Shown here piece by piece: positions 4,410 to 63,965 of a stretch of DNA of 64,000 bases. The stretch is from a virus. Below the pieces are notes generated by a model. It was not told the DNA's origin and searched no databases. It saw only the letters and a program-made list of their open reading frames with translations. Made by a program: the position numbers and the translations under genes. The first letter of the stretch is position 1. Each line of letters opens with the position of its first letter. The stretch is from positions 16,005-80,004 of the IMG/VR virus record IMGVR_UViG_3300047564_006544. One strand, written 5' to 3'.

Positions 4410-7400
4410 CTAATTGTAGTAGTTCTTGGCGATTGTGTTTAGGTACGCTTCCCACCACCTGCGGTAGAGGGACGTTATTATAGTACCGTCATCATCAGTT
4501 GCGGACTGTGCAATCTTTCTCCAGGACAAATCTTTTCCAACCTTCTTTGTATCTGAGGTCCAAAGATCCCTAAATATCTTTAGGGTTTCCTCTATAAGTT
4601 CGTTTGGCCTCTGAATATTTGGCACTGATGTAGATGCTTTTACAATAGAATCAATTGATAGGACTTCCTCTCCTGAGTTTAGAGCAGCAGCCTTTCTTCT
4701 TGATTCAAGTACATCCTTATGATTCATTACCTCTTCTATTGTTAGTCTCTTTAGTTCATTTAGAATTTTTTGATTAATTTCTTCGCTTGTCAATCCTACT
4801 GATTCTGAAGTTATTCTTTCTTCAACATCGCCTCTCATCTGCTTTACTTTGTTTCTTGCTTCTTTTAATATTGCATTAAGAGCACTATTTGTAAGATCGT
4901 TTAGAGAATGAGTTAATTTTGCTGGGTATATTACATGAGAATCTGGGTGAACTGCATAATCAGATGTTTGACATGACTCTATAACTCCGCTTATCTTTTT
5001 ATTTTTAACAGCAGATGCCTTTGGAGTTCCTAGCATATGAGTCTCTACATTATTATTTTCATCTAGTTGAAGATTAAAGAATTCTGCAACCTTCTTTAGT
5101 ATATCTTCGTTTACATTCTTAGACCTTAAGAAGAATCCTGGCAGATCGAATAAATCTTCTACTGTAAATAGATTTTCTGCAATCTTAGTTTCTGAATGAA
5201 CTGCAGATACTATATCCTGTAATCCAAATGTTGACTTTACAAATTCCTTATAGCTATCTATATCATCTGGATTTATTGGCCCACCAAAAGTGGTGTGCAT
5301 TGCTGGATTATTCAACATTGACCAAATTGAATATGGATCGAGCAACCTCAAACAGAATGCCTGCTGACTTGTCTTCTTTGTTTGTTTTCCTGCAGATTTT
5401 TTGTCAGCCAAATTTATTGCAGAAACAGAATCAATCATTGGAGTCTGCTCCATATATATCTTATTTACCTTTTGTGCTGCATTATAAAGGTCACACAATA
5501 GGCCAAGTTTTTCCATAAATGCCTGCAAAGTTATATTTGATTCTTTTGGATAAGCAGGAAGAACAGACTCATATTTTGCAGGATATGCTGTACGCAATCC
5601 AGACGAAAGATCTATGCTTATATTTACAAGCGGAGATACCTCAGATATCATGTTCTGCAAAAACATATCCTCTGTTTGAACAGATATATTCCAGCTTCTT
5701 CTAAACTTTTTCTTTTTTATCTCAAGAAGTATAGACTCCGTTTGCTTAAACCAATTATATAATTCTGATAGCTGAATAGATATATATTTTAACTTTTGTA
5801 CACATCCAGACTGAACTATTTTTGTCTTAACAACACCATTCTCATCTTTAAACTGTGGATCTTTTGCAATAAAGGCCCAAGAAATATTTAGTGGTGTCAT
5901 TCCATCTCTTGGAATAAATATATTTGACTCTGTTAATGTAAAGCTATCTTTTGTATCCTGAATTAACTCCTTATCAATTGAGTTTACTGCTCTTGATATA
6001 TTCTCATACTCTCCACCGACTGGCAATATTAGTCCATGTGATGATGAGGTTATCATGGTCTTTGATGTTTGTGACGTTGGAAATACATCTATATTTGTAA
6101 TAAAATCTCTAATACTTTCTCCAAGCAAGCTTCTGTAATATAGCTCTATATCCTTTGTCTTATCACCCCTAAATCCAGTCTTTAGATGCTCTGCCATTTT
6201 CTTGTCAATTATTGCATCTTCTTTATTTTGAATTTGTGGGGAAATACCTTTTGATAGTAGTATTTCATTGAGGTCTTCTATGTATTTTTTACTCACATCA
6301 CCAGGAGATCTTGCAACATAGTAATTATTCATAATCAAATTGTTTGGTGGTGGCCAAAATACTGGTGGTTCATCTATTTTTTGAATTCTTATTTCAAATA
6401 TATTATTTTGGTCTGATGATCCAGATATTGCAGAATCAACATGTGATTGAGTAAATAATATTCCAGTTCTTATGCTGGAATCAACTAGCAATAATCTTGA
6501 CTTATCAAATGAATCGATATTTTTTATATATCTTGATGCAAACTCAAGACCCTGCTTTGTATTGAGTCTTATAGTTCCACTTGGCATAATATCCATTATA
6601 TCAATATTTGGCAGATCTCCAACTTTGGATGGATCTTTTATTATAATATCTTTTGGAGCAATACATATATAAAGTCTTTTTGCAGAATCAGCTCCATCTA
6701 CAATAATTTCTTTTATTAAAATTAAGTAAGGCTCTTTTATTGTAGTTTGTGCAAACTTATATATATAGTTATTTCCATTGATTAGTTTGTTTTTGTTTAT
6801 TTGCATTGAATAAAACTGTTGAACAGAAAATACCATTGGAGCAGGATATATATCTTCTGTTGTGTCAAATCTTACTAAGTCTGGATTTAGCTGTATTTTT
6901 CCATATTGAACAGCATTTCTTTCAAATATTCTATCAGCTTCGCCATATAGCATTCTTGATTCTAATATCTTTGGTTTAATTATTTCAAAATTCTGAGGAT
7001 CTCTTTGCTTCATTAGCGGCTCTATACATAAATCAAGCTGCCTTGCCGCATTACCTATTGATCTTGATCCAATTGGCTTTGATATTAGGTCTAGAATGAG
7101 ATAGTCGATAGATGCTGTTGCCATCTTTATACATTGTTCAAATCGAGAAAAAACAATGGCTCTTTGCACGCTATATAGGCTTTTATTGCTTATATCAGGA
7201 GATATACCCTTAGATCTCATATATCCCAAAAAGACTGTATCTAAAGAATATGCATCTTTTAGCCCTGATTCTATTTCAGATATATTTGCATTAAATTCTT
7301 CATTATCCATTATTATAATCTTTGGAATAAATGCTGAATCTGCAGACTCATCAAACTTTGCAGATTGAAGAGATTCATTTATCAATCCAAATACATCAGA

Positions 7401-10400
7401 TCTTGCTCCAGTAACACCTATATAAAGCTGAGATGATTGATTTAAGAAATATCTTGAGTAAAAAGATCTTATGTTATTTACTACATCTATTGCATATGAG
7501 AATGTTATTGCCCTTCCTGTGTAGTTGACTATTGCATCTTCTAGTATTCTTTTTACTTCATAATTTTTATATGGAGAATAAAGTAATGCTGAAATATTAT
7601 TGCAAAATTCTCTTACCTTATTTTCTCCAACTATAGACGTTATGCTGCTCTCGTCTACTCCAAATATAAGACCGATGTTTTTATATACAGCGGATGATAT
7701 ATTCTCAATTATTGCGCTAACTGCTAATTTTTCATTAAGATTTGAAATAAATGGAACTGAAAAGTCCCTATAGTATTGTGCTATACCGGCCAAACTAACA
7801 AACTTATCAAAAGATACGTTTCTTTCAAATAAGCCATTTATATCATATGCGTTAAAAAAGTTAGAATAAACTACTTCCAGTTTATCATTACTTATGTTTA
7901 ATGTATTTGAAATAGACTGAAGTTCTAATTTTATTTTGTCAATTATCTTTGGATCTTTCTTTGGAACTGATAGCGGATTCATTAAGAAGTCAGCTTGACC
8001 ATCCGCAGATATCTTTCCCCAATATCTTGACATCTTCAAGAGCTTTACAAATTTATTTATAAATTCCGATACAGCCTCTGAAAATATTGAGGCAGAAAAA
8101 GATTCTGCATCTTCTGGAATCTCAGAATATGATCTAAAATATTCTTTTGTTATTCCAGGCATCAATGCCTCTAATAACCCATATTTTTCAATTATTTCTT
8201 TTGTATAAGTAGAGCCAATAATTTTAGTAGTAGCAGCTTTTGATGCCACCATTGATTCGTATGCTGATTCATCGGGCATTTCAGAGATATCTGCTATATC
8301 AAGCTCTGTAGTTCCACCCTCTTCGGATGATACAGTTGTGCTTTGAAGACCGCCTATATATCTTGTTACATAAAAATCAGTTCTTGATGGCATTGATAGT
8401 TTGCCATATTCCCAAGGATTCTTTTTAAATAAACCTGATGATGACTTTTGCCCAATTATATAGACCAAGCTACCAACTTTAAAATAAAGTCTTTGATCGT
8501 TTATTGCTCCAATCAGCTCCTCTATACTGGATGCTTGATTTGGCATGATATATCCAGATGGTATTGGCTCATTTTCGCTAAAAACTTTAATTATTCCAAT
8601 TCCATCAGAATACTTTGAAGATGTTAAAGTCTTTAGAATTGAATCATCGTCTCCAGATAGTAATGATAGTATTGCTTTTTTGCTCACAGTTCTTGTTGTG
8701 TGAGTGATTGCAATTGAAGAATGTGCTCTAGAAAACATCCAAGATTGCTCAAGAGTAAATCTATGGCCACTGTCACATACCAAGCCCAAATCCTTAATTA
8801 TATAAGCATCTGTTTCTTTTATCTCTTGTGCTGTTGATATTTTTGATTTTTTAAATAAAACATCAAGTATATTTTTTCTTGAAGATACAGATACTATATT
8901 GCCAACAACAGCTTCAACGTGTGGCCTCAAATCATTCATTTCTATTCCGTAATTTATAAGTGTTTTTACGGCTGAAACAAATGATTCTTTTCCTTTTGAA
9001 TTTAGAATATTCAAAAGAACGTTTCTAATATAATTTTTGCTAGAAGGATCCTTATCAAACATTGATATAGATACTTTCTTTCCGCAGATTGGATAAGCTA
9101 CCCTTGATAACTGATCACCAGAAGAAAGACTTCCATCTGGTGCAGTTGGCGGATAATATATATCCTCTCTTTTTAATCCAAGTCTTTCATTACCTACCAA
9201 CTCATCAACCATATTTCCTGGTACTTTTGGTATGGCTATAAAATTAATTAATCCTTCATACTTCTTTGAGCTAAGTATTGATGATCCTACTGCAGAATCT
9301 TGGCTTATATGACATGGACAATTTGCAGTATTTCTTGAGAACCTATAGCCAATCTTAAATCCACTTTCAGACTGCTCGCTTGAAACTCCGCTTCCAGAAT
9401 ATTCGCTATATGCAGCAAGTTGATATTCTGGAATTGATTCACCTTCGTTTATATAGCTCTTTCTAACTCTTGCAAGACAGGCATAATCTCTTTTTTCTTC
9501 TAGACTCTTAAGTATTCTTGTATCCTGCTTCATTGATGCAGCAAGCTTAATTAATGATGCCGCACAGAGTGTTTTATTTTGGAAAATTCCTCTAACTCCA
9601 GATGAAGATGCACCAAGAGATTTTAACTTATCATTTCTTATTATATGCCCAATTACGTTTAATAAAATCTTAGATTCTTGAGATCCATCAATTGCCTCTG
9701 GATCATATATCATACGATTAATTTCTTCCCAAGGATAACTCTTATTTAGTATGCTATTTAATATAGAGGATAGCTCTGTTGCTGATTTTTTTGAATATTG
9801 CTTATTTATTATTGCTGATATCATATTTTTTGCATCAGCAGATAGACTGTGAGATTGGGATGCTAATTCTGATTCTGATATAAAATCTCCATTTTCTTTA
9901 AAGAAAGAATATTGATTTTCAGATCTTGAAAATTCAGTTAGCTCATCTTTATATTCCGATGGAACCTGCGTAACTTGACCGCACACTCCGCATGCAATAG
10001 TGTTGAATGATTGCTGGTCTAGTATATTTTCTTCTGATTGAAAATATTTTTGAATCTCGTTATTTATATATGACTGAAGGCTAATATCATTAAGTGCCAA
10101 TTCATCAATAACTGATGATGCATCAATCATATCCAATAATGAAGTTGAAATTATTCTATCTATTTTTTCTTTTATTGCATTTTTTGCAACTTTTTCTAAT
10201 ATAACTAAGATATTTCCATATACATAATATGCCGCATCTTCAGTTCCATCGCTATCTATTTTTATGTTAGATCTTGCAACGTATTTTGATACCTTTATAT
10301 CAATATCTTTTTTTATCTTTTGCTCTCTTCCAAAAAGAAAAGACTTCATTAATCTGTAAAAAAATGAACTTATATTTTCAAATGTTTCTTTGTTTTCAAA

Positions 10401-11783
10401 AAGTCTTTTTGTAATAGAAAATCTGCTTTGAAATTCCCACTCAGCAGACTTTGTTTGTGTCCACTCTTGGCTTAAAAGAAGAGGATTTTTTCTTCTAAAC
10501 TCATATATCAGCTGCTTAATTTCTCTATCTTTTTTTATGCTTTTTTCAAAAAACTCTTTTAGCTGATCAAAGCATTTGTCAAGCGTTCCATCAATTGCTT
10601 CGTCTGTTATTTTTGAAAGCTCTGCTGATTTAATGCTCATCTGAGTTATAAACTCAGAGATTTTAGAATCAGAAAGCATATCTGCATCCTGTTCGTCAAC
10701 TATAGATATTGATTGAAGTCCAGATGAATCAAATGCATTATATACTGCTTTTGATAGTGGAACATCACTCTTTGGCAGGTCTAGTTTTTTCTGATTATTT
10801 TTTGAGTTTAATTCTAATATTGCTTCTGATATATCCTTTTTTTCTTCATTAACTTTATCAGGCTGAACTTCTACTGGAACATCTTCTTCTTTTTTGGACT
10901 TAAGCAAGCCAAGTTTATTCAAATAATAAGTTGCAAAATCTTTTATAAAGTTTAAGCTTAAAACATTGTTAATTTTTAATATTGAATCGATTGAAGATTC
11001 AGAATTTTTATCCTCTATATAATCAGCTAAAGAATAAAATAAATCTTCATTTTTTGATATATCTGCATCAATGGAACCAGAGGAAAGTTCTGATATAACC
11101 TGTAGAATTGCACCAGATATATTTGCATTTAAAACTGGCTCATTTTTTATATCGCTTGATCCATCAAGATCGAGTATATTTTTGTCAAACCCTCTTAGTG
11201 AGTTTAGAGCTTGTGCTGCAGAAAGAACTGTATTTTCTCCTGCAGCACCACTTGGATGTATCAATATCGAATGTAGAATTGCTTCTGTCTTACTTTGAAA
11301 TGGACCAAAGAAGCGCTCTGATGGTGAAAAAGATTGTCCGCTAGTTACATACCAGCCATATAAGTTATCCTCTGCTGGTAGCTCTTCTGTTACTACCTCT
11401 TGTTCTACAACCTCTTCTGGTTTATTTTTTGAATAAAATTCTGTTTTATACTTATTAAAAGCAGAGGTTATTCCTTCTAATAATATGTCAGCATCAAGAT
11501 CTGATGTTAACATTATTGTTCCGGCTGCAGTTATTAGAGTCTTTCTTTCTTCCTGTGATAATGTGTTATAATCTGGAGACCCAAAAAGCTTTTCAATAAA
11601 ATCAGTATTATAATAAAAGGGATTATTTCCGGCAGCAATAGCCTCTTGCGCTTCTTTAATTGCATATTCAGAAATTCTTATTCTATCTTGAAGCGATGGC
11701 CTTATATCTTCTGAATTATTAAAGACTATATTTTTGTACATATAGTCTAGTTCTTCTAAGCTCTGTGCGGTCTTTTTAATCAT
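4410..11783 (-). CDS. Giant 2457-aa hypothetical protein, possibly virion-associated
   Basis: Uninterrupted ORF; dispersed Cys/His clusters (CGVCG, CPCH, ICG, CDSGH); begins MIKKTAQ, RKIAQ near C-terminus. Confidence 0.85.
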   Translation of the reverse strand: MIKKTAQSLEELDYMYKNIVFNNSEDIRPSLQDRIRISEYAIKEAQEAIAAGNNPFYYNTDFIEKLFGSPDYNTLSQEERKTLITAAGTIMLTSDLDADILLEGITSAFNKYKTEFYSKNKPEEVVEQEVVTEELPAEDNLYGWYVTSGQSFSPSERFFGPFQSKTEAILHSILIHPSGAAGENTVLSAAQALNSLRGFDKNILDLDGSSDIKNEPVLNANISGAILQVISELSSGSIDADISKNEDLFYSLADYIEDKNSESSIDSILKINNVLSLNFIKDFATYYLNKLGLLKSKKEEDVPVEVQPDKVNEEKKDISEAILELNSKNNQKKLDLPKSDVPLSKAVYNAFDSSGLQSISIVDEQDADMLSDSKISEFITQMSIKSAELSKITDEAIDGTLDKCFDQLKEFFEKSIKKDREIKQLIYEFRRKNPLLLSQEWTQTKSAEWEFQSRFSITKRLFENKETFENISSFFYRLMKSFLFGREQKIKKDIDIKVSKYVARSNIKIDSDGTEDAAYYVYGNILVILEKVAKNAIKEKIDRIISTSLLDMIDASSVIDELALNDISLQSYINNEIQKYFQSEENILDQQSFNTIACGVCGQVTQVPSEYKDELTEFSRSENQYSFFKENGDFISESELASQSHSLSADAKNMISAIINKQYSKKSATELSSILNSILNKSYPWEEINRMIYDPEAIDGSQESKILLNVIGHIIRNDKLKSLGASSSGVRGIFQNKTLCAASLIKLAASMKQDTRILKSLEEKRDYACLARVRKSYINEGESIPEYQLAAYSEYSGSGVSSEQSESGFKIGYRFSRNTANCPCHISQDSAVGSSILSSKKYEGLINFIAIPKVPGNMVDELVGNERLGLKREDIYYPPTAPDGSLSSGDQLSRVAYPICGKKVSISMFDKDPSSKNYIRNVLLNILNSKGKESFVSAVKTLINYGIEMNDLRPHVEAVVGNIVSVSSRKNILDVLFKKSKISTAQEIKETDAYIIKDLGLVCDSGHRFTLEQSWMFSRAHSSIAITHTTRTVSKKAILSLLSGDDDSILKTLTSSKYSDGIGIIKVFSENEPIPSGYIMPNQASSIEELIGAINDQRLYFKVGSLVYIIGQKSSSGLFKKNPWEYGKLSMPSRTDFYVTRYIGGLQSTTVSSEEGGTTELDIADISEMPDESAYESMVASKAATTKIIGSTYTKEIIEKYGLLEALMPGITKEYFRSYSEIPEDAESFSASIFSEAVSEFINKFVKLLKMSRYWGKISADGQADFLMNPLSVPKKDPKIIDKIKLELQSISNTLNISNDKLEVVYSNFFNAYDINGLFERNVSFDKFVSLAGIAQYYRDFSVPFISNLNEKLAVSAIIENISSAVYKNIGLIFGVDESSITSIVGENKVREFCNNISALLYSPYKNYEVKRILEDAIVNYTGRAITFSYAIDVVNNIRSFYSRYFLNQSSQLYIGVTGARSDVFGLINESLQSAKFDESADSAFIPKIIIMDNEEFNANISEIESGLKDAYSLDTVFLGYMRSKGISPDISNKSLYSVQRAIVFSRFEQCIKMATASIDYLILDLISKPIGSRSIGNAARQLDLCIEPLMKQRDPQNFEIIKPKILESRMLYGEADRIFERNAVQYGKIQLNPDLVRFDTTEDIYPAPMVFSVQQFYSMQINKNKLINGNNYIYKFAQTTIKEPYLILIKEIIVDGADSAKRLYICIAPKDIIIKDPSKVGDLPNIDIMDIMPSGTIRLNTKQGLEFASRYIKNIDSFDKSRLLLVDSSIRTGILFTQSHVDSAISGSSDQNNIFEIRIQKIDEPPVFWPPPNNLIMNNYYVARSPGDVSKKYIEDLNEILLSKGISPQIQNKEDAIIDKKMAEHLKTGFRGDKTKDIELYYRSLLGESIRDFITNIDVFPTSQTSKTMITSSSHGLILPVGGEYENISRAVNSIDKELIQDTKDSFTLTESNIFIPRDGMTPLNISWAFIAKDPQFKDENGVVKTKIVQSGCVQKLKYISIQLSELYNWFKQTESILLEIKKKKFRRSWNISVQTEDMFLQNMISEVSPLVNISIDLSSGLRTAYPAKYESVLPAYPKESNITLQAFMEKLGLLCDLYNAAQKVNKIYMEQTPMIDSVSAINLADKKSAGKQTKKTSQQAFCLRLLDPYSIWSMLNNPAMHTTFGGPINPDDIDSYKEFVKSTFGLQDIVSAVHSETKIAENLFTVEDLFDLPGFFLRSKNVNEDILKKVAEFFNLQLDENNNVETHMLGTPKASAVKNKKISGVIESCQTSDYAVHPDSHVIYPAKLTHSLNDLTNSALNAILKEARNKVKQMRGDVEERITSESVGLTSEEINQKILNELKRLTIEEVMNHKDVLESRRKAAALNSGEEVLSIDSIVKASTSVPNIQRPNELIEETLKIFRDLWTSDTKKVGKDLSWRKIAQSATDDDGTIITSLYRRWWEAYLNTIAKNYYN

Positions 11784-19405: not shown

Positions 19406-19933
19406 TCATTTTGACTCCAGCATTTTTTTCAATTTTTCATTTAGTCTTTCTATTTTATCAGGATCTTCCTTTGAGCTTTCAAAAGAAATACGATCTATTT
19501 TTCTCAATAGTCCAGACATATTATCTATTTGGCCTGGGTTCTTTGAAAGAAACTCTCTAATTATTGCAGATGTATTTAAAAGAATTGGAAAGGCAACCCT
19601 TTTTTGCTCTATTACATCTTGATATGCTCCTGGATTTTTAACCATAGACCTCATTTCAACCATTGCTTCTGAGAATGTCTTGCCTGTGCAAAACATATAA
19701 AAGTCAATTGATGAAACACCCTGATTGCATCCATAACAAAAGAAATTATTATCTCTTGAGTTTATATAGCAAGAAGATGTCTTTTCTTTTCCATGTTTAT
19801 GATCTACAGATGGGCAACGACAACGGTAATCAAAATTACCTGCTGAAGTTGATTCAAGCTGAATTCCAAATTGTGATGCAAGCTCTAATATTTTTACTTG
19901 CTTTGCTATGTCTGTTCTGGATGCAATTTTCAT
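19406..19933 (-). CDS. Stand-alone CHC2 (DnaG-type) zinc-finger protein
   Basis: CP..DH..EKTSSC....FFCYGC..G..IDF; no TOPRIM domain. Confidence 0.8.
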   Translation of the reverse strand: MKIASRTDIAKQVKILELASQFGIQLESTSAGNFDYRCRCPSVDHKHGKEKTSSCYINSRDNNFFCYGCNQGVSSIDFYMFCTGKTFSEAMVEMRSMVKNPGAYQDVIEQKRVAFPILLNTSAIIREFLSKNPGQIDNMSGLLRKIDRISFESSKEDPDKIERLNEKLKKMLESK

Positions 19934-19937
19934 TTTA

Positions 19938-20984
19938 TTACTTAAATATTGAAATTAAATTTGACCAAAATGACGTACCCTTTTGCTGTGGCTCAATTTT
20001 TGCAATATCATTCTTTGCAACTCTAAAATAGACGGGCTGCCTACAGCTCTGGTCTATATAGTACGCCATTCCTGGCTCAGTTATATTTGCTGCAAGAGAA
20101 GAATTCATAATAATTCTTGATTCCATATCTGAAGAAACTCTCATTGCAATTCTTCCTGTAAAGTTTGCCTTAATTTGACCTGGAAGAATTGATGATGATG
20201 GACGCTGTGTTGCTAGGATAACAGAGATTCCTGCGGCTCTACCTTTTTGAGAAATTGTAAGAACCTTGTTTAGATTCTTTTTGTCAGAAAGGTAAACATC
20301 TGACCACTCATCAATAATTAAGGCATATGGGCAAATCTTCTGAGAACTCATCATATTGTTCTGGACTGCAGAGACATATCCTCTTTTGCTCAAAAGAGAA
20401 TAAATTGTATTCATCCTATCTATAATAGAATCAAGCGTTCTTCCGAAATCATCAGGATCGGAAACAACCGTACAGGGCCGTCTTTTGCTAAATTCATTGA
20501 AGTCTACAATTTTAGGGTCAATTATTGTTACTGCAACACCAGATGTCAAAAGGCACTCAACCATTACCTTTAAAAGCGTACTCTTTCCTGCGCCGGGGGC
20601 ACCTGCCACTAGGGTATTGGGGACAGCCCCTTGATCCACTACCAGCGGCCCGCCTAGCGCGGTGCAGCCAAGCACCATAGGGGAGAGGGCCGAAGCGGGC
20701 AGGAGGGCTAGGGCTTGACTTAGGAGCATCTGGTCAACGTCCCTTCTTTGGATCGAAATCTTGTAGGAACCCGTTTGGTAATTGATCTCACCATTTGGCT
20801 CACTCATTGATCCCATGTAAAGTGCAAAATCTCCAATTGATTTTGCAAGTTTAGACAGTTTTGTTCCAAATTCTGGATAAACGTCAAATATGTCAAAAGA
20901 CCCAATCTGGGTCTTTTTGATTTCTGCAACTTGGATTTTTTGAATGAAGAAGAAGTGTCTTGCTCTCTCTACATCTTTATCCAT
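19938..20984 (-). CDS. FtsK/SpoIIIE-family ATPase (motor domain only)
   Basis: LVAGAPGAGKS, IIDPK, IIDEWSD, GRAAGISVILATQRPS. Confidence 0.9.
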   Translation of the reverse strand: MDKDVERARHFFFIQKIQVAEIKKTQIGSFDIFDVYPEFGTKLSKLAKSIGDFALYMGSMSEPNGEINYQTGSYKISIQRRDVDQMLLSQALALLPASALSPMVLGCTALGGPLVVDQGAVPNTLVAGAPGAGKSTLLKVMVECLLTSGVAVTIIDPKIVDFNEFSKRRPCTVVSDPDDFGRTLDSIIDRMNTIYSLLSKRGYVSAVQNNMMSSQKICPYALIIDEWSDVYLSDKKNLNKVLTISQKGRAAGISVILATQRPSSSILPGQIKANFTGRIAMRVSSDMESRIIMNSSLAANITEPGMAYYIDQSCRQPVYFRVAKNDIAKIEPQQKGTSFWSNLISIFK

Positions 20985-43172: not shown

Positions 43173-43180
43173 TTTAAATC

Positions 43181-44215: not shown

Positions 44216-44233
44216 TATTGCTCCGAGGTTATA

Positions 44234-45487: not shown

Positions 45488-45503
45488 AATAAACAACAAG
45501 ATA

Positions 45504-45911
45504 CTAAGAGATTTTTTCATCAATAATAAAAAATTCTTTATCTGCCCAAGAAAATTTAACCCTATTTACCAATAGATTTGCCATATCTTTTACAAAAGAA
45601 AGATTAAGCTTTAAATCTTTTATCTCGCTATCCAGATCTTCAATCTTTTTTAGAAAATCTAAAGGGCTACTTTCTGCAACAATAGAAAAATAATTTACAT
45701 AGTCTTCCATTGTTGCGATTGTTACATCTCCCTTTGCCTTCTTTATTGGCTTACAGATTATAAGATCTTTTCCTGATGGAAGCTCGTTACGCTCCTCCCA
45801 TCCAACGAGAATCTTTCCGTCTTTTTCTGGCGGGAGCTGACGGTAGCCAAGAATTTTATCTACCTTGTAGGTTTTTAGAATCTTAGGTAATGTTGCCAAC
45901 TTTTCCTCCAA
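45504..45911 (-). CDS. Hypothetical protein
   Basis: 135-aa ORF; start uncertain. Confidence 0.55.
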   Translation of the reverse strand: MEEKLATLPKILKTYKVDKILGYRQLPPEKDGKILVGWEERNELPSGKDLIICKPIKKAKGDVTIATMEDYVNYFSIVAESSPLDFLKKIEDLDSEIKDLKLNLSFVKDMANLLVNRVKFSWADKEFFIIDEKIS

Positions 45912-46551
45912 TCTTCTTTATGGTAGCTGCATTACCGTGAACCTCAAACATTACAGTCTTTTCTGCCGTCTTATTATCAACGCGACAAAGAGTGCAGTCG
46001 TTACAGGTAATGTCCTTCTTTCCTTCTACGCCATGACGAGCGGGGCACATAAATGCCTTCTCACCATTTGGCAAGGAAAGTGACTTCTGTGTTCCCTTTG
46101 GTACGATTAGTGTTGCAGACCAGCCCATAGAGCGTGCCTCCATCACTTCATCAAGGTTTGCACAGGAAGCCCTAAAATAGCCCTTTAGAGGCTGGGCTTC
46201 ATCTGCTCGCCAATTATGAGTGTAGCCAATATTGATAAGCCCTTCGCTCTCAACGAGCTTACACTCATTAAGTGTTTCTTTTACATCGCCAACAATATCT
46301 CCGGCAATTCTATGCCGAACAATTCTTGCCGTATGTAGTCGCTCTCCTAGAGCATCCGTGATAGACTTAAGCTTAATTGTTCCCTTGTCAATCTTTGATG
46401 AAAGAACGCCAAGGTAAAACAATCCCCAAGCATAACACCCGCCTTCTTTTAGTGAGCAGGAGTCTGGGCAGCTTTCCTTTGTAGAATAGGATGCAACAAC
46501 CTTTCCTGTCTTTTTGTCATTAGAAGAAGAAACCCAATGAACCTTTCGCAT
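45883..46551 (-). CDS. Cys-rich phage protein (Gp88/DUF7227-like, putative Fe-S)
   Basis: SCPDSC...GCYA, RHRIAGD, YTH.W, CPA...TCNDCTLC. Confidence 0.6.
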   Translation of the reverse strand: MRKVHWVSSSNDKKTGKVVASYSTKESCPDSCSLKEGGCYAWGLFYLGVLSSKIDKGTIKLKSITDALGERLHTARIVRHRIAGDIVGDVKETLNECKLVESEGLINIGYTHNWRADEAQPLKGYFRASCANLDEVMEARSMGWSATLIVPKGTQKSLSLPNGEKAFMCPARHGVEGKKDITCNDCTLCRVDNKTAEKTVMFEVHGNAATIKKIGGKVGNIT

Positions 46552-50976: not shown

Positions 50977-51726
50977 ATGGATAAAATAAAGAAGGGCCTT
51001 GGCTATATAAATATTATAGTATCAACTCTTATTTTAATCATTTTTAGCAAAGAGCTTTTAATTCCAAAAGACGGTCCAATTAGTATATTGGAAGAAAAAA
51101 GAAATTTTGCAGAAAAAAGAACTCTTCTAATAGAGTGGAAGACGGCAAGCTGGAGCGGCGTTTTATTTAAATCAGACAATAAATCTTCAAAAATTCTAAC
51201 GATAATACATGAAGATTCTATGAAAAAAATAAAAGAATCTGGAGATATAAGTCTAAAGATTTCAGATCGTGAAGGAAAAACTCATACTGCATCAATAAAA
51301 GCTTGGAACAATTGTAATGAGCTGGCTCTTTTAGAAATTTCTAGTGGATATACTGATTATACTAGTCCAATACATATGGAAAATAAACAGGAGAATTTAT
51401 CACAAGGTTTATTTTCATTTGGTCATCCACTTGGTCTAAACTTACATTATTCAGAAGGATATCTTAGTTCTACTGGAAATAAAATAAAACCATGTGGAAT
51501 GGTAACAAACGGATTTTCTGGAGGAACAGTACCTGGTCAGACAGGTTCAGGCGTTTGGAATAAAAATGGAGAGCTTGCTGGATTGATAGTTGCAACATCT
51601 GCAATGCCAGTAAAGTCATATGACTCAAGCGGAAATCAGTCAGGTGTTTCTGTCATTCCTGTTACATTTCTTGGAAGATTTGTTCCGGCATCAGAAATAA
51701 AAATATTTTTAAAAAAACTACTTTAG
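50977..51726 (+). CDS. Membrane-anchored trypsin-like (HtrA-type) protease homolog with altered triad
   Basis: ILTIIH, NELALL, FGHPLG, SEGYLS, PGQTGSGVWN.NGELAGL. Confidence 0.8.
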   Translation: MDKIKKGLGYINIIVSTLILIIFSKELLIPKDGPISILEEKRNFAEKRTLLIEWKTASWSGVLFKSDNKSSKILTIIHEDSMKKIKESGDISLKISDREGKTHTASIKAWNNCNELALLEISSGYTDYTSPIHMENKQENLSQGLFSFGHPLGLNLHYSEGYLSSTGNKIKPCGMVTNGFSGGTVPGQTGSGVWNKNGELAGLIVATSAMPVKSYDSSGNQSGVSVIPVTFLGRFVPASEIKIFLKKLL

Positions 51727-54533: not shown

Positions 54534-56048
54534 TTAATTTATTGATTCTTTCATTATTTTAAATGCTTCTGATGGTGTAGATGGTGGCGGATCTTCTTTT
54601 GATAGTGCATTTAATATTGGCTTTACATCCTCTGGAGTAAGTTCTTTTATTCTTGTTCCTGTCAAGTGAACTATATATTTTTGAATCATTTCTTTATCAG
54701 GATATTTCATTACAGAGTTTGGTGATATTGTATCCTGCTCAATATCTATATGAGTTGGATCATCTGGAAGCAGTATTCCTCTCGCGGCAAGAAGACTTCC
54801 TATTCTATCTATAATTATTCCTTTTTTATTTTCAGGCTGATCGACTCCTGTCCAGCCAGAAATTTCTTTTGCAAAAAGATCAGAAGATAAGTTTCCAGAT
54901 TCATCTTTTATGTTTGATATAAACTGCCTGAGATTTTTTCTTCCAAAATTAAAAGAAAGTCTTGTCAGGGAATCATACATACCTCTTGTTATTGGCGTAT
55001 CGCTATTTACTCCAACCTCATCAATTGTATGCCTTATGATATCATCAACTTTTACTCTGTTTGCATCCTCTTCGCTTATTCCTTTTTTCCACTTAATTTC
55101 TCTTCCATTTTTAAGAGTAATTACGCCTGAGCTAAGCTCCTCTGGAGTTAGCTTATGACCATATCCAATTGTCCATCCGACGCTTGTCTTGTCCTTATCT
55201 CTTGGCCATACCAATGACTTATCATCATTGTATACGTTTTTCTTGTATCCCTCATCTGTCTTTAGGCTACTTATTGCAATATCGGACATATCCATTCCGC
55301 CGACCGTGCCAACTTCATCTACAAAGTATTCTTTGCCTATTCTTCTTGCAAATTTTGCCATAACCTCTTTTAGATCTGGATAAGCAACTTCTGCTCGATT
55401 TGTATGAGGAAATAATTCTGATTGCTTTAGCTGCAAACCAGATTCTTCAAATACAAGATTTGGATTATATTCTTTTAAAAATTCAATAATTATATCTTTT
55501 TTGTTTTCAACTTGTATATTTGGATATAATTGATTTATTATATCATCAGTTTGTGTTCCGATTGGAAACTGTTGTTTTAGCTTTGTTAAGTTTGGAGATT
55601 CTTCAAGAGAAAAATCTGCAATTGCCTCTTCAATTTTTTCTTTTCCGCCAAAATTATATGCAGCACCACCAATAAGACTCAATCCAAGGAAGGCTCCAAG
55701 AAGCATTGATTTTATGCTGTTCTTTATAGCAGCAGCTTCTTTTCTGAATCCAAATCCTTGTAGCGCAGCCTTTGCTGCTTTTAGCTTTGAAAGCTTTTTC
55801 TTTAGGACTTCGCTTCTTTCCCCATAATCAAGATTCTTTCTAAAGAACTGAGGAACATCACCTTGTCCACCGCGAGGAAAAACATGATTATCGTCAGAAG
55901 AATTTTCATGTTTAAAATACTCAATCTGGCGAAGTCTTTTTTTTGCACTGCTCATTGAGCTATATGTTCCCATGTTTTTTCCTTTTTCAGAATAAACACG
56001 GAATTTGTTAGGGCCTATTTTTTTAATATAAGATTCTTTGATAAACAT
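54534..56048 (-). CDS. Modular protein with GH24 phage lysozyme domain
   Basis: DEG....YND...WTIGYGH...SFNFG; preceded by basic module, hydrophobic helix and LysM-like segment ending in YNP. Confidence 0.8.
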   Translation of the reverse strand: MFIKESYIKKIGPNKFRVYSEKGKNMGTYSSMSSAKKRLRQIEYFKHENSSDDNHVFPRGGQGDVPQFFRKNLDYGERSEVLKKKLSKLKAAKAALQGFGFRKEAAAIKNSIKSMLLGAFLGLSLIGGAAYNFGGKEKIEEAIADFSLEESPNLTKLKQQFPIGTQTDDIINQLYPNIQVENKKDIIIEFLKEYNPNLVFEESGLQLKQSELFPHTNRAEVAYPDLKEVMAKFARRIGKEYFVDEVGTVGGMDMSDIAISSLKTDEGYKKNVYNDDKSLVWPRDKDKTSVGWTIGYGHKLTPEELSSGVITLKNGREIKWKKGISEEDANRVKVDDIIRHTIDEVGVNSDTPITRGMYDSLTRLSFNFGRKNLRQFISNIKDESGNLSSDLFAKEISGWTGVDQPENKKGIIIDRIGSLLAARGILLPDDPTHIDIEQDTISPNSVMKYPDKEMIQKYIVHLTGTRIKELTPEDVKPILNALSKEDPPPSTPSEAFKIMKESIN

Positions 56049-57920: not shown

Positions 57921-57931
57921 TCGCACCTCGA

Positions 57932-57966: not shown

Positions 57967-57983
57967 GTGTAGAACAAAAGTTT

Positions 57984-58409: not shown

Positions 58410-58561
58410 ATTATATATCCTGTTGGAAGTATTATCTATTAACTTAGTTATTATATATAGAGGGCTTTATATATATACTGCAAAATTTTTAAAAAGCTTA
58501 AGCAAAAATAATTTTTTCTATTATTTTATTTAGAGTGTATAAATAGTTTTATGGAGAGTTT

Positions 58562-61300
58562 ATGAGAAGAATTTCAGCAAGAAGTTTTGATAATTTTATA
58601 AAAATTGCTAGTCCAGAAGGGTTTTTTCAGGGAATAGCTTCTGGAAAATTAAATCCTTATTTGGGCGATCATAATAAACTTTTTGATCAGCTAATTGCAA
58701 AAAATCCAAATGGAATGCAAAGAGCATACAATGCACTTAATTCAGCAGATAAAATAAAAGTAGATAGCTTTCTTGATCAAAGCTACTATGGTGGATCTGG
58801 AAATGCACAGCAACAGCTTGCTAACGCAGTAAAAGCAAATCCAGCCATAGTAAGGACCCCAACTGTTTCTCCACCTACAGTATCAGGCCCAACAACCTTA
58901 CCATCTGGAACTAGTCCAGTTATACCACCAACAAATACTCCAACTACTATGCCACCCGGCACTCCAACAGTAAGTCCTCCAATTCGTCCAACTACTATGC
59001 CTCCTGGTACTCCAACAGTAAGGCCTCCAATTGGCCCAACTACTGTGCCATCTGGAGTTCCACAAGCAACCAGAACAGTTGGACAAGGTGCGGCTGGTGC
59101 AGGAAGGGCAGGAGCGGCACTAAGAGGTGCCGGATCAGCACTAAGAGGTGCTGGTTCTGCAGCGCTAAGAGGCGGAGGAGCATTATTATCTGGAGTCGGA
59201 GGAGCAGCAGGTACTGCCGTAGGAGCAGTTGGAACAACATTAGGCGTTGGAACTGGAGCAGCAGCAGCAGTTGTAGTTGGAATTCCACTCATTTTAGCAA
59301 CACCATTTCTTATGGAAAAATGGTTTGGCTCAAGAGATGCATTGGTCGGAAAAACAGAGTTAGAAAAGCAATTTGTAAGCAAAGCAGAAGAATTATTTGA
59401 ACCAATTTGGGATCATGATGTCACTGTAACATTTAACCCTTGGGCTAGTACTTCATGGTCCGATGAAAAGTCTGGTGATCTTGGAGAAATATCTGGTCCA
59501 GAAAAGAATAATATTATAATGATAATTCTTGGTGCTGCATTATCTGGAAATGTAAAAGAAGTTTCTTCTGAGGCTATATTAGAACAGCTAAGGGGAACCG
59601 GTCGTGCAAGCTTAGAAGATATGAAAAATGACGAAGATCTTATGGCTGATATAAATGCTGCATCAAGTTATTTTACAGCTCTAGCAAAAGATATGGCTGA
59701 TGCTATAAGAATTGCTCAGAGAAACGCCCCGAAGGATTCGGGCCAAGTTGCTGGCCCTGTTGCACAAACAGGTGGAGGTGGCTCAATTCCAACCGGAACA
59801 AGAGGAGAAGCTCTTGATTACGTTGGAGCCTCAAATATAATGATTGAAAATGGATTCCTTGACTCAGTTCAGACAGATTGGACTCCAGAGTTTGATGCTG
59901 GATTTAGAGGATTTATTGATGCTGCAACAAGAGGTGCAGATAATATTCCAGATTCAAATCTTTCTTCTGGTCAGACCTGGGGAGAAGCTGCTGATGACCT
60001 TGGCTTTTCGCCAGATGCTCGCGGAGCAATAGTAGCTGTAAAGAGATTGGCAAAGTTTATTGGCAAAGCTCCAACACCATCTGCAATTCCAGATGCAAGT
60101 CCCGCAGGGCCAAATCCAAAGGGAGAGGCACCAGTAGTTTCTGGAAAAGAAAATATATTGGCTCAGATGGTAGGAATTCTTTACAACGAAAGACTCGTTG
60201 AAGGTGGAGGATTCCTCTCTTACGAAAAGAAGCAGACACAGAGCTTGGTTGATGCCCTTGGTGGTGCTGGATTATCTGGATTTCCAAATGCTGCAAAGAA
60301 GCTTATGGAAAGAAATCCTCAGTTGGCATCAGTTATTCCAGATGAATTAAATATGCCTGTTACAAAAAAGACAATAAAAGGAACTCAATTGCTTCCCGCG
60401 TTTAAGATGGTTCAGGAGACGATTCACGACATTTACGAGGCAGCAAACCCAGGAATGATAAATCCAGGAAAGAATAAGGCAACAGAAAATGTTAAAAAGT
60501 ACTTTGGAATAACGGCTGGCTTTTCTGAAAACCGTTTCGTAAAATTAGCCAAAGAAAACGAAATAGAAAAAGCATCAAGAATTATGATGGAAAAGGGATA
60601 TTTGGACTCAATTCAGACCAGCTGGACGCCAGCTTTCGATGCCGCATTTAGAGAGTTTATTGACGCCTCAACAATGCATATAAAAGAAAAAACAAATTTA
60701 ATGAGTGGTGTTCCATGGCAAAAAGAATTTAAGAGATTTTTTGGTGATGTAACTCCAGATCAGGCTGGTGCAGTAAAAGCAGTTGTAGACTTTGGAAAAA
60801 ATGCTCCATATAAGTCTAGTGGAATGGGAACAGGAAGCTCTTCCAAGGGATTCGGAGGATCTCAAGATAAAGGATTTGGTACTTCAAAAGTACCAAGCCC
60901 TGATAGCGAAATAGAAAAAGCATCAAGAATTATGATGGAAAAGGGATATTTGGACTCAATTCAGACCAGCTGGACGCCAGCTTTCGATGCCGCATTTAGA
61001 GAGTTTATTGACGCCTCAACAATGCATATAAAAGAAAAAACAAATTTAATGAGTGGTGTTCCATGGCAAAAAGAATTTAAGAGATTTTTTGGTGATGTAA
61101 CTCCAGATCAGGCTGGTGCAGTAAAAGCAGTTGTAGACTTTGGAAAAAATGCTCCATATAAGAAAAAGGCAGCATTTAACTCTGATCGTTTCGTAAAATT
61201 AGCCGAAGAGCGCAGAGAGAGAATTAGAAGAGAAATCGAGGCTAATTTGACTCCAGCCGAAAAAGCAGCAATGAGAAGACTAAGAATGAGAGGGGCATAA
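58562..61300 (+). CDS. Large modular protein: P/T-rich repeats, G/A-rich membrane segment, three copies of an ~85-aa domain
   Basis: PTTMPPGTPTV repeats, ALRGAGS repeats, hydrophobic helix, repeated IM.E.G.LDS.QT.WTP.FDA.FR.FIDA. Confidence 0.85.
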   Translation: MRRISARSFDNFIKIASPEGFFQGIASGKLNPYLGDHNKLFDQLIAKNPNGMQRAYNALNSADKIKVDSFLDQSYYGGSGNAQQQLANAVKANPAIVRTPTVSPPTVSGPTTLPSGTSPVIPPTNTPTTMPPGTPTVSPPIRPTTMPPGTPTVRPPIGPTTVPSGVPQATRTVGQGAAGAGRAGAALRGAGSALRGAGSAALRGGGALLSGVGGAAGTAVGAVGTTLGVGTGAAAAVVVGIPLILATPFLMEKWFGSRDALVGKTELEKQFVSKAEELFEPIWDHDVTVTFNPWASTSWSDEKSGDLGEISGPEKNNIIMIILGAALSGNVKEVSSEAILEQLRGTGRASLEDMKNDEDLMADINAASSYFTALAKDMADAIRIAQRNAPKDSGQVAGPVAQTGGGGSIPTGTRGEALDYVGASNIMIENGFLDSVQTDWTPEFDAGFRGFIDAATRGADNIPDSNLSSGQTWGEAADDLGFSPDARGAIVAVKRLAKFIGKAPTPSAIPDASPAGPNPKGEAPVVSGKENILAQMVGILYNERLVEGGGFLSYEKKQTQSLVDALGGAGLSGFPNAAKKLMERNPQLASVIPDELNMPVTKKTIKGTQLLPAFKMVQETIHDIYEAANPGMINPGKNKATENVKKYFGITAGFSENRFVKLAKENEIEKASRIMMEKGYLDSIQTSWTPAFDAAFREFIDASTMHIKEKTNLMSGVPWQKEFKRFFGDVTPDQAGAVKAVVDFGKNAPYKSSGMGTGSSSKGFGGSQDKGFGTSKVPSPDSEIEKASRIMMEKGYLDSIQTSWTPAFDAAFREFIDASTMHIKEKTNLMSGVPWQKEFKRFFGDVTPDQAGAVKAVVDFGKNAPYKKKAAFNSDRFVKLAEERRERIRREIEANLTPAEKAAMRRLRMRGA
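60559..61162 (+). repeat. 256-bp direct repeat (60559-60814 and 60907-61162)
   Basis: Copies read as identical, offset 348 nt (116 codons). Confidence 0.92.
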
Positions 61301-61301
61301 T

Positions 61302-63053
61302 ATGAGCAGCCTAAGATTAGCAAAATTAACACAGTTGATGAAGGAAGCCCAAAAGCAACAGATTGTAACAAAAAACTTTGGGCAAAGAGTTGATCTTTAT
61401 ACTAACTTTAATCTGTTAAATGACATGAAAGACTCTATATATGTAGAGCAGGAAGGTCGTACAGTAGGTGATGTGGAAGTTTTGCCCGGAAAAACATTAT
61501 CCGGTTGCCTTACAAATTCTAATCTTACTGTTCACTTTACAAACCTAATGGGAGGAAAGGACTCAAAGGTTATTGATTCAAATGAGCTGAGAACCTTGAT
61601 TCCATCCCTAACGGTAAAAGCAGGTGAGCTAAGCCCAACTTTAAATGTATCTAAAGTGCTAATTGATATTTCTATCAAAAAATTTAATTCTGTTAATAAA
61701 TTAGCTGAAATGAGAAAGATTGCTGCAACATTTGAAGATACAAAAGCAGAATGGGCAAAAATTGACAAAGAGATATCTCCAATAACAGAAGAAATGCTCG
61801 ATACAGACTATGTTTATGGTGATAGTGGCGGAGATATGGATGATATAGATTCTGCTGCAAAACAAAGAATTACTGATTTTGTAAGAAATAATATCTTTGC
61901 AAAATCCTTAACTTTGCAAAATCTTTACACAAAAATCTCAGAAGAATTTAAAGCAAAAAAATTAAAACCTCCACCATCTGAAAAGACTACTAGTTTTGGT
62001 TCTGATATAAAAGAATTTTTTAATCAATATAAACCAATCCAAGATAAGTGGATAAAAATAGTTGAAGATAAAAAATTGCCTCTAACAGAGGTTGCTGGTA
62101 ATTCTGCAGCTACCACTCAAATTGATGATAAAGGCAGAGCGCAACCTACACAAAAAGCAAATAGTAGTGGCGCAGTAGCAAAAACATATGCTGATGTAAT
62201 AAAGCAAGAACTTTGGACAAAAACAGTAAGAGATAATGCTGGATATACATTTGAAATAGGTGCAGATGGAAAAAGCCTAACTTATAGCAAGGATGGATCT
62301 GTGCCAAAAACATTAAATCAGTCCTATAAAAATTGGCCTCAGCTAGTTAAAAATATAAACGAACTTACTCCTGTTGCTGGCTCAGATTCTGCCGCAACAG
62401 CCGGTACTGCAACAGATACACAGCCAGCAACCGCACCAGCAGCAAAGACTGAAGAGGCAAAGCCAGCAGAAGCAACGAGACAATTTGATCCTAGCACTCT
62501 TGCTGGAGTAAAGGCAGTTTTAATTAGAGCCGCAAAACCAGGAGGATTTGGACTTTCAGTTGGAACAGCTGCAAATGAAAGAAGAAGAATTCAGAAGATG
62601 ATTGAAACTATATCAAGCTCAGAAGGACCAAGTATTGATGCCTATGATTTTCTAACCAAGATGTTGCTAGTATCTCCAAGAGGGGATACTTACTTAACAG
62701 CTTTCTTTAGAGGTGCTTCACAAGATGATATTGATGCAATAATGAGAAGCCCAAGAAAAGATGTTGTTGCAGATCCAAAGGGTGGAAAATATAATCGACA
62801 GGTTGCAGCCGTATTGAGTGTATTAAATGAAGTGTATGATGGTGATTTTTCAGAAGATAATACAAAAGCTATTAAAGATTTTAAAGCAAAATATGTAAAA
62901 GCATCAAAATTAAATAATAGTATTATAAAAATTTCATCAAAGGTAGATCCGAAGATTAAGAAGCTTGCAACACTTCGCAGACTAAGAGTTCGCTCTCAGA
63001 TGGAAGAGGCAACAGAATCAGCAACAAGATTTGGTCGCTCTAGAATTTCTTAA
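61302..63053 (+). CDS. Hypothetical protein with K-x-[AS] motifs
   Basis: 583 aa; MKEAQ, RKIAA, IKISS, KKLAT; R-rich C-terminus like the upstream gene. Confidence 0.8.
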   Translation: MSSLRLAKLTQLMKEAQKQQIVTKNFGQRVDLYTNFNLLNDMKDSIYVEQEGRTVGDVEVLPGKTLSGCLTNSNLTVHFTNLMGGKDSKVIDSNELRTLIPSLTVKAGELSPTLNVSKVLIDISIKKFNSVNKLAEMRKIAATFEDTKAEWAKIDKEISPITEEMLDTDYVYGDSGGDMDDIDSAAKQRITDFVRNNIFAKSLTLQNLYTKISEEFKAKKLKPPPSEKTTSFGSDIKEFFNQYKPIQDKWIKIVEDKKLPLTEVAGNSAATTQIDDKGRAQPTQKANSSGAVAKTYADVIKQELWTKTVRDNAGYTFEIGADGKSLTYSKDGSVPKTLNQSYKNWPQLVKNINELTPVAGSDSAATAGTATDTQPATAPAAKTEEAKPAEATRQFDPSTLAGVKAVLIRAAKPGGFGLSVGTAANERRRIQKMIETISSSEGPSIDAYDFLTKMLLVSPRGDTYLTAFFRGASQDDIDAIMRSPRKDVVADPKGGKYNRQVAAVLSVLNEVYDGDFSEDNTKAIKDFKAKYVKASKLNNSIIKISSKVDPKIKKLATLRRLRVRSQMEEATESATRFGRSRIS

Positions 63054-63312
63054 TCTTTAAGATTAGCTCTCCAGAGCCTTTAACCAAACGATGCCACTCA
63101 CCCTTACGGATTGAGTGGCATTCTCCTTTCTTAAGCAATACAGGAAGTTTATTATCTCTCTGAAACTCCCAACCATCGCCAGCAACTAGGATAATCTCCC
63201 TATCTTCTCCATCCCTGTGCCATGTAAGCTCTTCGTCGTGAACACTATCAGAAAAGCGACGGATAAACCACCCGTCGCCCTCCTCAACCTCTTTAAAAGG
63301 TAAGCCTACCAT
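63040..63312 (-). CDS. Small cupin-fold protein
   Basis: WHRDGEDR...WEFQ.DN.LP...I.KGEWHRLVKG. Confidence 0.7.
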   Translation of the reverse strand: MVGLPFKEVEEGDGWFIRRFSDSVHDEELTWHRDGEDREIILVAGDGWEFQRDNKLPVLLKKGECHSIRKGEWHRLVKGSGELILKIKKF

Positions 63313-63965
63313 CTACCCTCAAACTTTAGACCCAACTGCTTCTTATAACGGTGTAGGTTGCAAGACCAATATCTTGCACCAGTCTTTGGGCCGGGACTAT
63401 CGCAGTTATGTCTGGCAAGGAATGACTTTCTTCTTTCTGGATTACCAGCCTTAACAGAAAGGTTTGCATCACCAAAAGTAATTGTCTTTACATTTCCGGT
63501 AGAAGGATTCTTAACGTGAACAATAAACTTCTTTTTTCCATAGCCTGGATCACCCTTTCCAATTCTTCTTGGAGAGTTTAATCTTCCTGGGCTTTTCTTC
63601 TTTTTTGCTGCAGCAGTCTTAACATAGTAGGACTCATCGTCATCAATCTCTATTGGAAGATCTAGAGGAACCTCAACGCCATTTAGCATGGCAGTCTTAC
63701 CAATGTCTGTATTTAATAGCCACTCATCTTCTTCGCAAACAGAGAGTGCTCCGATCTTCCAAAGGTCCCTTGCCTCATTGAATAGTGAGAGATACTCTGA
63801 AGAGTGAATGCGAAATGTGTTTGAAGCAAGCTTAATTCTATTATCAAGATGATATTTTAATGCAGCTGATACATGAAGCTCAGGAATAAGCAGAACTGCT
63901 CCCTTGCTCTTCTCAATTTTATCTGAAAGTGATGCTATTTTTTGAAGTCTTTCTGCTCTTTCCAT
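63306..63965 (-). CDS. Two-module basic phage protein
   Basis: LQKIAS; module 1 YHLDN..LFNEAR..VPLDLP; VKTAA; module 2 ITFGD...RRKSFLARHNC...ARYWSC. Confidence 0.75.
   Translation of the reverse strand: MERAERLQKIASLSDKIEKSKGAVLLIPELHVSAALKYHLDNRIKLASNTFRIHSSEYLSLFNEARDLWKIGALSVCEEDEWLLNTDIGKTAMLNGVEVPLDLPIEIDDDESYYVKTAAAKKKKSPGRLNSPRRIGKGDPGYGKKKFIVHVKNPSTGNVKTITFGDANLSVKAGNPERRKSFLARHNCDSPGPKTGARYWSCNLHRYKKQLGLKFEGRW

Follow-up and report, generated by a model that had tools for sequence, protein, structure and literature searches.

Phage and herpesvirus capsid proteases constitute one fold family, in which the prohead protease gp21 of phage T4 recognizes L/I-x-E and herpesvirus assemblin cuts its maturation and release sites at V/L/I-x-A|S. 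In T4, the genes for the internal proteins and Alt lie at a distance from the head module. To our knowledge, no characterised phage head protease has been reported to cut after alanine; all of them cut after glutamate. In giant phages, the head proteases gp175 of phiKZ and gp245 of SPN3US follow the rule (S/A/G)-x-E or A-x-E (PMC10052503, PMC5694885), and the identified cuts that gp245 makes in its substrates, at AXE sites, all yield N-terminal propeptides (PMC10052503). Our study concerns a 64-kb stretch (hereafter the window; positions 16,005 to 80,004 of the IMG/VR record IMGVR_UViG_3300047564_006544) of a viral contig of 80,004 bp, in which a previous sequence-only reading had noted nine otherwise unrelated open reading frames (ORFs) with a K-x-[AS] motif near the N-terminus and had proposed it as a capsid-targeting and maturation code. 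We found that the motif is better described as hydrophobic-x-Lys-x-Ala, with Ser, Gln, Gly or Asn as the usual next residue; it is located at or near the N-terminus and often closes a short basic helical leader. With moderate confidence, based on the comparisons described below, we propose that this motif serves both as a targeting signal and as the site recognised and cut by the head-maturation protease of the clade, with Lys at P3, Ala at P1 and the hydrophobic residue at P5.

All nine ORFs, as well as the peptides quoted for them, are present in the window. Motif frequencies were determined in 71 window ORFs, which were called greedily, each from its longest possible start; for the 583-, 417-, 912- and 2457-amino-acid (aa) proteins, homologue alignments back the start chosen. 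Within the first 17 residues, K-x-[AS] occurs in 24 of the 71 ORFs, compared with 15.0 ± 3.0 expected when the N-terminal residues are shuffled (P = 0.0025); the expected enrichment over a shuffled background is therefore present at the N-termini but not in the whole proteome (353 versus 340 expected). The entire excess is due to K-x-A, with 13 of 71 ORFs against 5.1 expected, whereas K-x-S remains at background (11 of 71 against 10.7, P = 0.51), so that only half of the proposed code stands. Among the 400 gapped residue pairs, K.A ranks first at the N-termini, although its excess by itself is not significant after correction for 400 tests. The sharper form, hydrophobic-x-K-x-A, was derived from head-module families of related phages, which are absent from the contig; in the first 20 residues it is found in 11 of the 71 window ORFs against 2.3 ± 1.4 expected (about five-fold), a count reached by none of 2000 shuffles, and it fits eight of the nine named ORFs, the exception being the lysozyme-domain protein (MFIKESY). 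The codons beneath the motif vary; therefore, the signal resides at the protein level. A first refinement, K-[ILVM]-A-[SQT], gave 8 occurrences against 0.37 expected here but did not replicate at the N-termini of the relatives, and it was dropped. The claim that the recognisable enzymes lack the motif is unsupported for the loose form (7 of 23 enzymes against 17 of 49 other ORFs, P = 0.47), and for hydrophobic-x-K-x-A the difference is a trend only (1 of 23 against 10 of 49, P = 0.07).

It is necessary to consider that these counts could arise by chance, from lysine-rich N-termini in an AT-rich genome and a motif chosen after the fact, and we regard this explanation as improbable. It agrees with the background level of K-x-S, with the loss of significance of K.A after correction for 400 tests, with the fact that composition alone predicts K-x-[AS] within the first 17 residues in about 18-24% of proteins, with the absence of a genome-wide enrichment in the complete relative, and with three clear false positives. 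The first of these is the SKLAT of an M16 peptidase, a strand of the fold that reads SRMAT in the complete relative; the second is a primase zinc-finger piece (19406-19933, minus strand; PHROG DNA-primase matches) whose MKIAS start is a probable chance match; and the third is a TerS-like protein in which the Ala is not conserved. Nevertheless, the five-fold enrichment of hydrophobic-x-K-x-A persists when N-terminal composition is preserved, several families keep the tag even where identity falls to about 30%, and the bias is replicated in the head modules of other genomes while control pairs stay flat. For the sharper motif, chance is thus largely refuted.

The evidence from the head module comes wholly from relatives, since this module is not on the contig: neither the window nor the contig has capsid, portal, large-terminase or prohead protease genes. 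The contig represents about one quarter of a jumbo phage of about 335 kb, because it is collinear with kb 9-87 of a complete IMG/VR genome of 335,169 bp with direct terminal repeats (G001; pieces L083-L099), and because a near relative of 63.9 kb has a completeness rating of 19%. Its coding density is about 97% and its GC content about 35%; it has no transfer RNA genes, and no terminal repeat was found at its ends. It ends just before the large-terminase gene, and in G001 the large terminase directly follows the counterpart of the contig's first gene. Besides G001, the relatives include an 87.6-kb fragment that is more closely related (G007), together with G002-G005, G006 and G008. Cultured phages gave no match by megablast (20 kb) or by tblastn with a 518-aa protein of the clade, whose capsid protein is 50% identical to gp27 of Bacillus phage G.

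In the head module of G001, bounded by the portal (phrog_16240) and the major head protein (phrog_2522, E 1.5e-72), K.A is present in the first 45 residues of 8 of 12 proteins, compared with 75 of 373 in the rest of the genome (P = 8e-4); in G007, the corresponding values are 7 of 11 and 10 of 72 (P = 9e-4). The control pairs K.S, R.A, E.A, K.G, K.L and K.E are not significant in the head modules of these two genomes. When unrelated head-module families are counted, K.A again ranks first, with 5 of 12 families and 3 for the next pair. The observation in G001 generated the hypothesis, and G007 and G002-G005 repeat it with homologous families. In the clade's capsid protein, V[KR]YAS stands at about residue 25, and a low-complexity stretch separates it from the part that aligns with phage G gp27; the motif thus lies on an N-terminal extension of about 43 aa, which gp27 does not have. 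A scaffold-like family of 199 aa has a conserved K[KE]A and the G007 portal has SKYAS, whereas the tail and baseplate proteins encoded downstream and the terminase of the relatives are without the motif. Phage G displays a weaker version of this bias (P 0.01-0.05), with hydrophobic-x-K-x-A in 6 of 19 head-module proteins against 5 of 65 others (P = 0.014). For another head-module family, of 231 aa, the AlphaFold model was unusable (predicted local distance difference test, pLDDT, 34).

The protease to which we attribute the motif would be the N-terminal domain of a head protein of 1043-1151 aa and is homologous to phage G gp19. In this head-module family, the first ~250 residues match phrog_18299, 'head maturation protease' (G001 97135-100590 at E 6e-14; G007 43021-46152 at E 1e-13), and the domain is 33% identical to gp19 (E 7e-28). 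Thus, the sequence-only reading's suggestion to look for a head protease and for the motif on capsid and scaffold led to both, in the head modules of relatives. In six genomes, the protease family conserves [RQ]-[LMF]-x-K-[LF]-A directly before IAPKSDDFLYF, and in phage G gp19 the sequence APKEDDFLY is immediately preceded by LVKTA..VKIA; a cut of gp19 at LVKTA/VKIA would resemble the self-processing of SPN3US gp245. Phage G gp19 is a head/capsid maturation protease by annotation (PMC12484599). Searches of five relatives with the Pfam S77, S78 and HK97-capsid families gave no match and were uninformative, as the S77 control was also silent.

A second peptidase deserves consideration, given that basic presequences are removed from the N-termini of proteins by M16 enzymes, the mitochondrial processing peptidase being one example. 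The window encodes a complete M16 (insulinase-type) zinc peptidase (28132-29331, minus strand; PF00675 5e-30, PF05193 7e-40) with the HxxEH motif. This peptidase is kept in G001 (37% identity) and G008. Its homologue in phage G is gp2 ('zinc-dependent peptidase'), whose gene adjoins the terminase gene. Such an enzyme could remove basic presequences at a cut two or three residues after a basic residue, and its conservation in the window, in G001 and beside the terminase gene of phage G, together with presequence-like leaders such as MRSLGKIRRLLKIAQ, is in agreement with this. We nevertheless give this explanation a low probability, since no link to the carriers was found beyond co-occurrence, the motif clusters in the head module beside a dedicated head protease, and a tag of 3-5 residues would not be long enough to be recognised as a presequence.

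According to the head-protease proposal, tagged proteins would enter the prohead and be trimmed inside it, as happens to the T4 internal proteins, which bear a capsid-targeting sequence (CTS). Eight of the nine named window ORFs would then be candidates for proteins of the head interior, or for ejected proteins, with genes outside the head module. The conservation of the tag in the homologues of these proteins is the strongest evidence for a function of the tag. The best-supported carrier is an orphan of 912 aa (58562-61300, plus strand), whose tag MRRISARS..FIKIA ends at nucleotides (nt) 58595-58609. Its homologues P0058-P0060 keep MR[RK]IS.R..[IF][KR].A[SQY], although the following ~80 aa are unrelated. 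It is also the only tagged window protein with a homologue, albeit a weak one, inside a head module, the others being orphans among replication genes; this homologue is the 885-aa protein encoded directly upstream of the capsid gene in G001-G005, a family with a conserved K-[KE]-A-G at about residues 25-40.

The adjacent orphan of 583 aa (61302-63053, plus strand) has an N-terminal tag, ..KLTQLMKEA (nt 61335-61349), an internal copy, KLAEMRKIAA (nt 61698-61730, residues 133-143), which opens the next module, and a conserved C-terminal element, IKKLATLRRLRVR (nt 62955-62993). In its family, 39 of 49 representatives (clusters at ≤50% identity) have hydrophobic-x-K-x-A in the first 45 residues, and most of these representatives begin with the tag M-R-x-x-R-[LM]-x-K-L-A-x-[LM]-[KR]-K-x-A. 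The sequences diverge immediately past the Ala and the detectable homology lies in the C-terminal half; several homologues match residues 1-135 alone. A profile of the family's tag picks up the internal copy (independent E-value 0.005), and it contains too little information to detect tags in other proteins. As a separate observation, the C-terminal signature of this family, ..DP[KR]IKKLATLRRLRVRSQMEAA..FGRSR[IV]S (nt 62955-63053), is very strongly conserved; it follows a variable low-complexity linker and is present in dozens of otherwise divergent metagenomic proteins.

This family also provides support for an alternative that we consider less likely, namely that the motif belongs to an uncleaved docking or assembly helix, basic and amphipathic, with the core K-L-A-x-L-[KR]-[KR]-x-A, that stays on the mature protein. 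The tag of the 583-aa family is a complete, conserved, helix-like unit of 16-17 residues with two K-x-A repeats, and a similar element, KLATLRRLRVR, is found at the conserved C-terminus of the same family. Such a helix would bind a partner common to the tagged proteins, for example the scaffold, the portal, DNA or a membrane, and K-x-A would then be the part of the helix that is best conserved. Several features do not fit well with a helix of this kind. A Lys and an Ala two residues apart should face different ways in a helix, whereas in an extended strand both should point to one side, an arrangement that by this reasoning better suits the subsites of a protease. In addition, the head modules show no enrichment of the typical helix pairs K.L, K.E and E.A, conservation breaks off abruptly past the Ala in the 912- and 583-aa families, and in the protease the motif stands immediately ahead of the catalytic domain, the position expected of a site of autocleavage. 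A pattern fixed at P3 and P1 is in the style of prohead proteases and therefore supports the protease-site reading.

Among the other tagged window proteins, an orphan of 417 aa with hydrophobic segments (44234-45487, plus strand) carries RLLKIAQ (nt 44261-44275), in which L10, L11, K12, A14 and Q15 are invariant in five homologues down to 34% identity (RLLK[IV]AQ); of its internal K-x-A-S sites, at residues 108, 138, 167 and 285, the KIAS at 138 is kept in four of the five homologues. This protein has a weak tape-measure PHROG match, and no counterpart was found in the five related contigs searched. The 224-aa protein (63306-63980, minus strand) carries ..RLQKIA (nt 63933-63947) and a C-terminal phrog_7595/DUF5754-like domain, which in some phage records bears the label 'HVA1 family protein'. 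Its homologues in cultured marine and freshwater phages begin at residue ~29 or later, and the tag is therefore an add-on in this phage. The 262-aa orphan (38637-39425, minus strand) starts with MQKLA(S) (nt 39411-39425), and its syntenic homologues keep the motif, with the start MRVQKQAG in G001 and ..MIRKKSAL in G008. In the 226-aa orphan (37960-38640, minus strand), the start is MIKRA (nt 38626-38640) and an internal LKKLA(S) (nt 38122-38136) opens the C-terminal module; these C-terminal 58 aa constitute a separate ORF of 66 aa in G008, with the N-terminus ..LEKLAS, and the G001 homologue of the protein starts with MKKIS.

Among the eight candidates, the 92-aa and 2457-aa proteins are the weakest. 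The 92-aa orphan (37685-37963, minus strand) starts with MKKKA (nt 37949-37963), where the fit to the motif needs the initiator Met, and the Ala is not kept in the start MKKLGTGLN of the adjacent G008 ORF, which was compared by eye and is unaligned to the 92-aa ORF. The 2457-aa orphan (4410-11783, minus strand) starts with MIKKTA (nt 11766-11780) and has WRKIAQ near its C-terminus. Its tag is identical in the G006 counterpart, whereas the G001 counterpart (2014 aa) is without such an N-terminus and aligns over ~220 residues only. With G006, the overall identity of this protein is 72%, compared with 93-100% for the neighbouring genes, and it is therefore fast-evolving. The ninth named ORF, of 504 aa (54534-56048, minus strand), has a phage-lysozyme domain at residues 266-399 (PF00959, 5e-8) and the K-x-S start MFIKESY; no homologues were found among the relatives examined. 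Its start resembles M-[RK]-K-x-[SA]-[YW], with which two head-module families of the relatives begin, and it may be the same kind of extreme N-terminal tag. One of these families (620-758 aa; G001 95210-97072, L087:15210-17072; homologues in G002-G005 and G007) has a DUF192 (COG1430) domain, on which we found no functional literature, and starts with M-[RK]-K-x-[AS]-[WY]-P; the neighbouring family, of 177 aa, starts with M-[RK]-K-I-S-Y. A further carrier beyond the nine is an orphan of 344 aa (43181-44215, minus strand) that starts with MFIKKDA (nt 44195-44209).

It had also been claimed that most carriers repeat the motif at module boundaries. An excess of K.A is indeed found in the 417-aa (10 against 3.4 expected), 2457-aa (21 against 11.6) and 224-aa (5 against 1.8) proteins, but the other six have none, and the internal sites that open modules are two, one at residues 133-143 in the 583-aa protein, the other at residue 171 in the 226-aa protein. 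Systematic internal processing of polyproteins is unsupported.

Outside the window, in a conserved block adjoining the terminase genes, five orphan families keep K-x-A. In the 132-aa family, it stands exactly where the conserved domain joins a leader whose length ranges from 0 to ~40 residues; since some members are nearly leaderless before it, leader removal would not be its sole purpose, a point in favour of the docking helix. In the 462-aa family, K-x-A closes a variable leader; in the 518-aa family, indel-prone stretches follow each of two K-x-A-S sites; the 196-aa family has two K-x-A sites; and the 159-aa family has KK[VI]AF. When gapped pairs were counted by the unrelated families that conserve them (within the first 60 residues, in at least 80% of distant family members), K.A was the top pair, with 7 of 19 families, compared with 5 for the next pairs. 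These seven comprise the five orphan families and two paralogous GroEL-like chaperonins, in which K.A is probably part of the conserved fold; therefore, the five orphan families carry the cross-family result. For the 518-aa family, a profile search of the PDB was empty, and the AlphaFold model has no convincing structural neighbour, the best being phage G gp7 with a low TM-score.

Several observations weigh against the interpretation of the motif as a head-protease site. In many carriers the motif lies at residues 3-5, so a cut would remove about five residues, and the residue following the Ala is poorly conserved. The nine ORFs sit among replication and nucleotide-metabolism genes, and five of them have no homologue in G001, where the genome-wide N-terminal enrichment is absent (56 of 385 observed, 56 expected) and the signal is confined to the head module. 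Compared with its 72%-identical homologue, the 2457-aa protein shows no preference for keeping internal K.A sites (0.57, versus 0.545 for residue pairs in general). In the 518-aa family, the model (pLDDT 73.5) puts both K-x-A-S sites at helix ends rather than in clearly disordered linkers, as would also be expected of a docking helix. No Pfam protease family matched the head protease, whose assignment is based on the PHROG label and the published annotation of gp19. Finally, the sharper motif was refined partly after this genome had been seen, and the families common to several genomes are samples that are not fully independent. Given the concentration of the motif in the head modules of relatives, the motif-bearing protease and the tags kept in homologues, the core idea that a short motif on unrelated proteins is a head-protease or capsid-targeting signal is consistent with our results for K-x-A but not for K-x-S. 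That the protease cuts after Ala, that the tag targets proteins to the head, and that the window proteins reside in virions and are ejected are inferences from these sequence comparisons.

The predicted system resembles that of T4 gp21 and its CTS-bearing substrates (IPI-III and Alt) in that a P3-x-P1 motif is found on the capsid protein, a scaffold-like protein, the protease and unrelated internal proteins (candidate ones here); the motif is mostly N-proximal, and the leaders double as loading signals, as we propose here. It differs from T4 in the predicted residues, with Ala at P1 and Lys at P3 instead of Glu and Leu/Ile, and in that the protease makes up only the N-terminal domain of its protein, whose length exceeds 1000 aa. 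As in the jumbo phages phiKZ and SPN3US, N-terminal propeptides on many head and ejection proteins are predicted to end in one tripeptide rule, several copies of the motif per propeptide are possible, and the protease may cut itself, which here is suggested by sequence alone. However, the predicted specificity is after Ala and not Glu, several tags are very short, and the clade, with its phage G-like capsid, is unrelated. Herpesvirus assemblin also has Ala at P1, often with Ser at P1', but at P3 Lys stands here in place of a branched hydrophobic residue, the hydrophobic residue being at P5, and P1' may be Ser, Gln, Gly, Asn or others; with respect to an assemblin-type (V/L/I)-x-A|S site, only the P1 Ala fits. 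The likeness to Bacillus phage G (gp14 portal, gp19, gp27, gp2) includes the 50% identical capsid, the homologous protease domain and M16 peptidase, and N-proximal K-x-A; in phage G, unlike here, the protease is a separate protein of 300 aa and gp27 has no tag-bearing extension.

If the proposal is correct, the phage/herpesvirus capsid-protease family gains a new phage specificity, after Ala with Lys at P3, and the motif predicts from sequence which orphans of a large clade of uncultured jumbo phages, otherwise unannotatable, travel in the head. More tentatively, the motif could constitute a portable head-loading code of the phage G-like jumbo clade, which is almost wholly uncultured. Any protein bearing a tag of ~5-17 residues would be loaded into the prohead, where the protease would cut it after Ala, and would reach the host together with the DNA; the cargo would include the lysozyme-domain protein, membrane-inserting proteins and the 2457-aa giant. 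Because phage G is cultured, has a homologous protease and capsid, and has existing virion proteomics, the prediction is directly testable.

The recognisable genes of the contig are dedicated to replication, nucleotide metabolism and chaperones, and they include DnaE, SbcCD, an exonuclease, RecA, a split primase, two sigma-like factors, two GroEL-like proteins, Hsp20, the M16 peptidase, a trypsin-like peptidase and an FtsK-like ATPase. The trypsin-like serine peptidase (50977-51726, plus strand; PF13365 1.8e-7, phrog_9683 'protease') has an N-terminal hydrophobic segment and is not linked to the motif. The primase is split into the 175-aa zinc-finger ORF mentioned above and a 252-aa Toprim ORF (L001:8595-9353) located ~26 kb apart, while in G001 the zinc-finger part sits within a protein of 558 aa. 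The two GroEL-like genes (40917-42536 and L001:10875-12518) are divergent, with ~37% mutual identity, and are kept across the clade; Hsp20 (26203-26736) is also conserved clade-wide, as is a 348-aa FtsK/SpoIIIE/HerA-type ATPase (19938-20984), although the phage also has a canonical large terminase. A CTAWTA motif, which had been noted upstream of several carriers or their operons, is enriched, being present within 80 nt upstream of 18 of 94 genes against ~5 expected, mostly 15-45 nt before the start (for example, upstream of the genes at 58562, 54534, 38637, 63306 and 28132), and it is probably a promoter element; its tie to the tag carriers is weak (10 of 33 versus 8 of 61). Lastly, the portal (1286 aa, 90249-94109) and the large terminase (957 aa, 87366-90239) of G001 are about twice as long as their counterparts in G002, G003 and G007 (550-593 aa), and the portal also matches thymidylate-synthase and PhoH-like PHROG families, which suggests inteins or inserted domains in the two oversized proteins.

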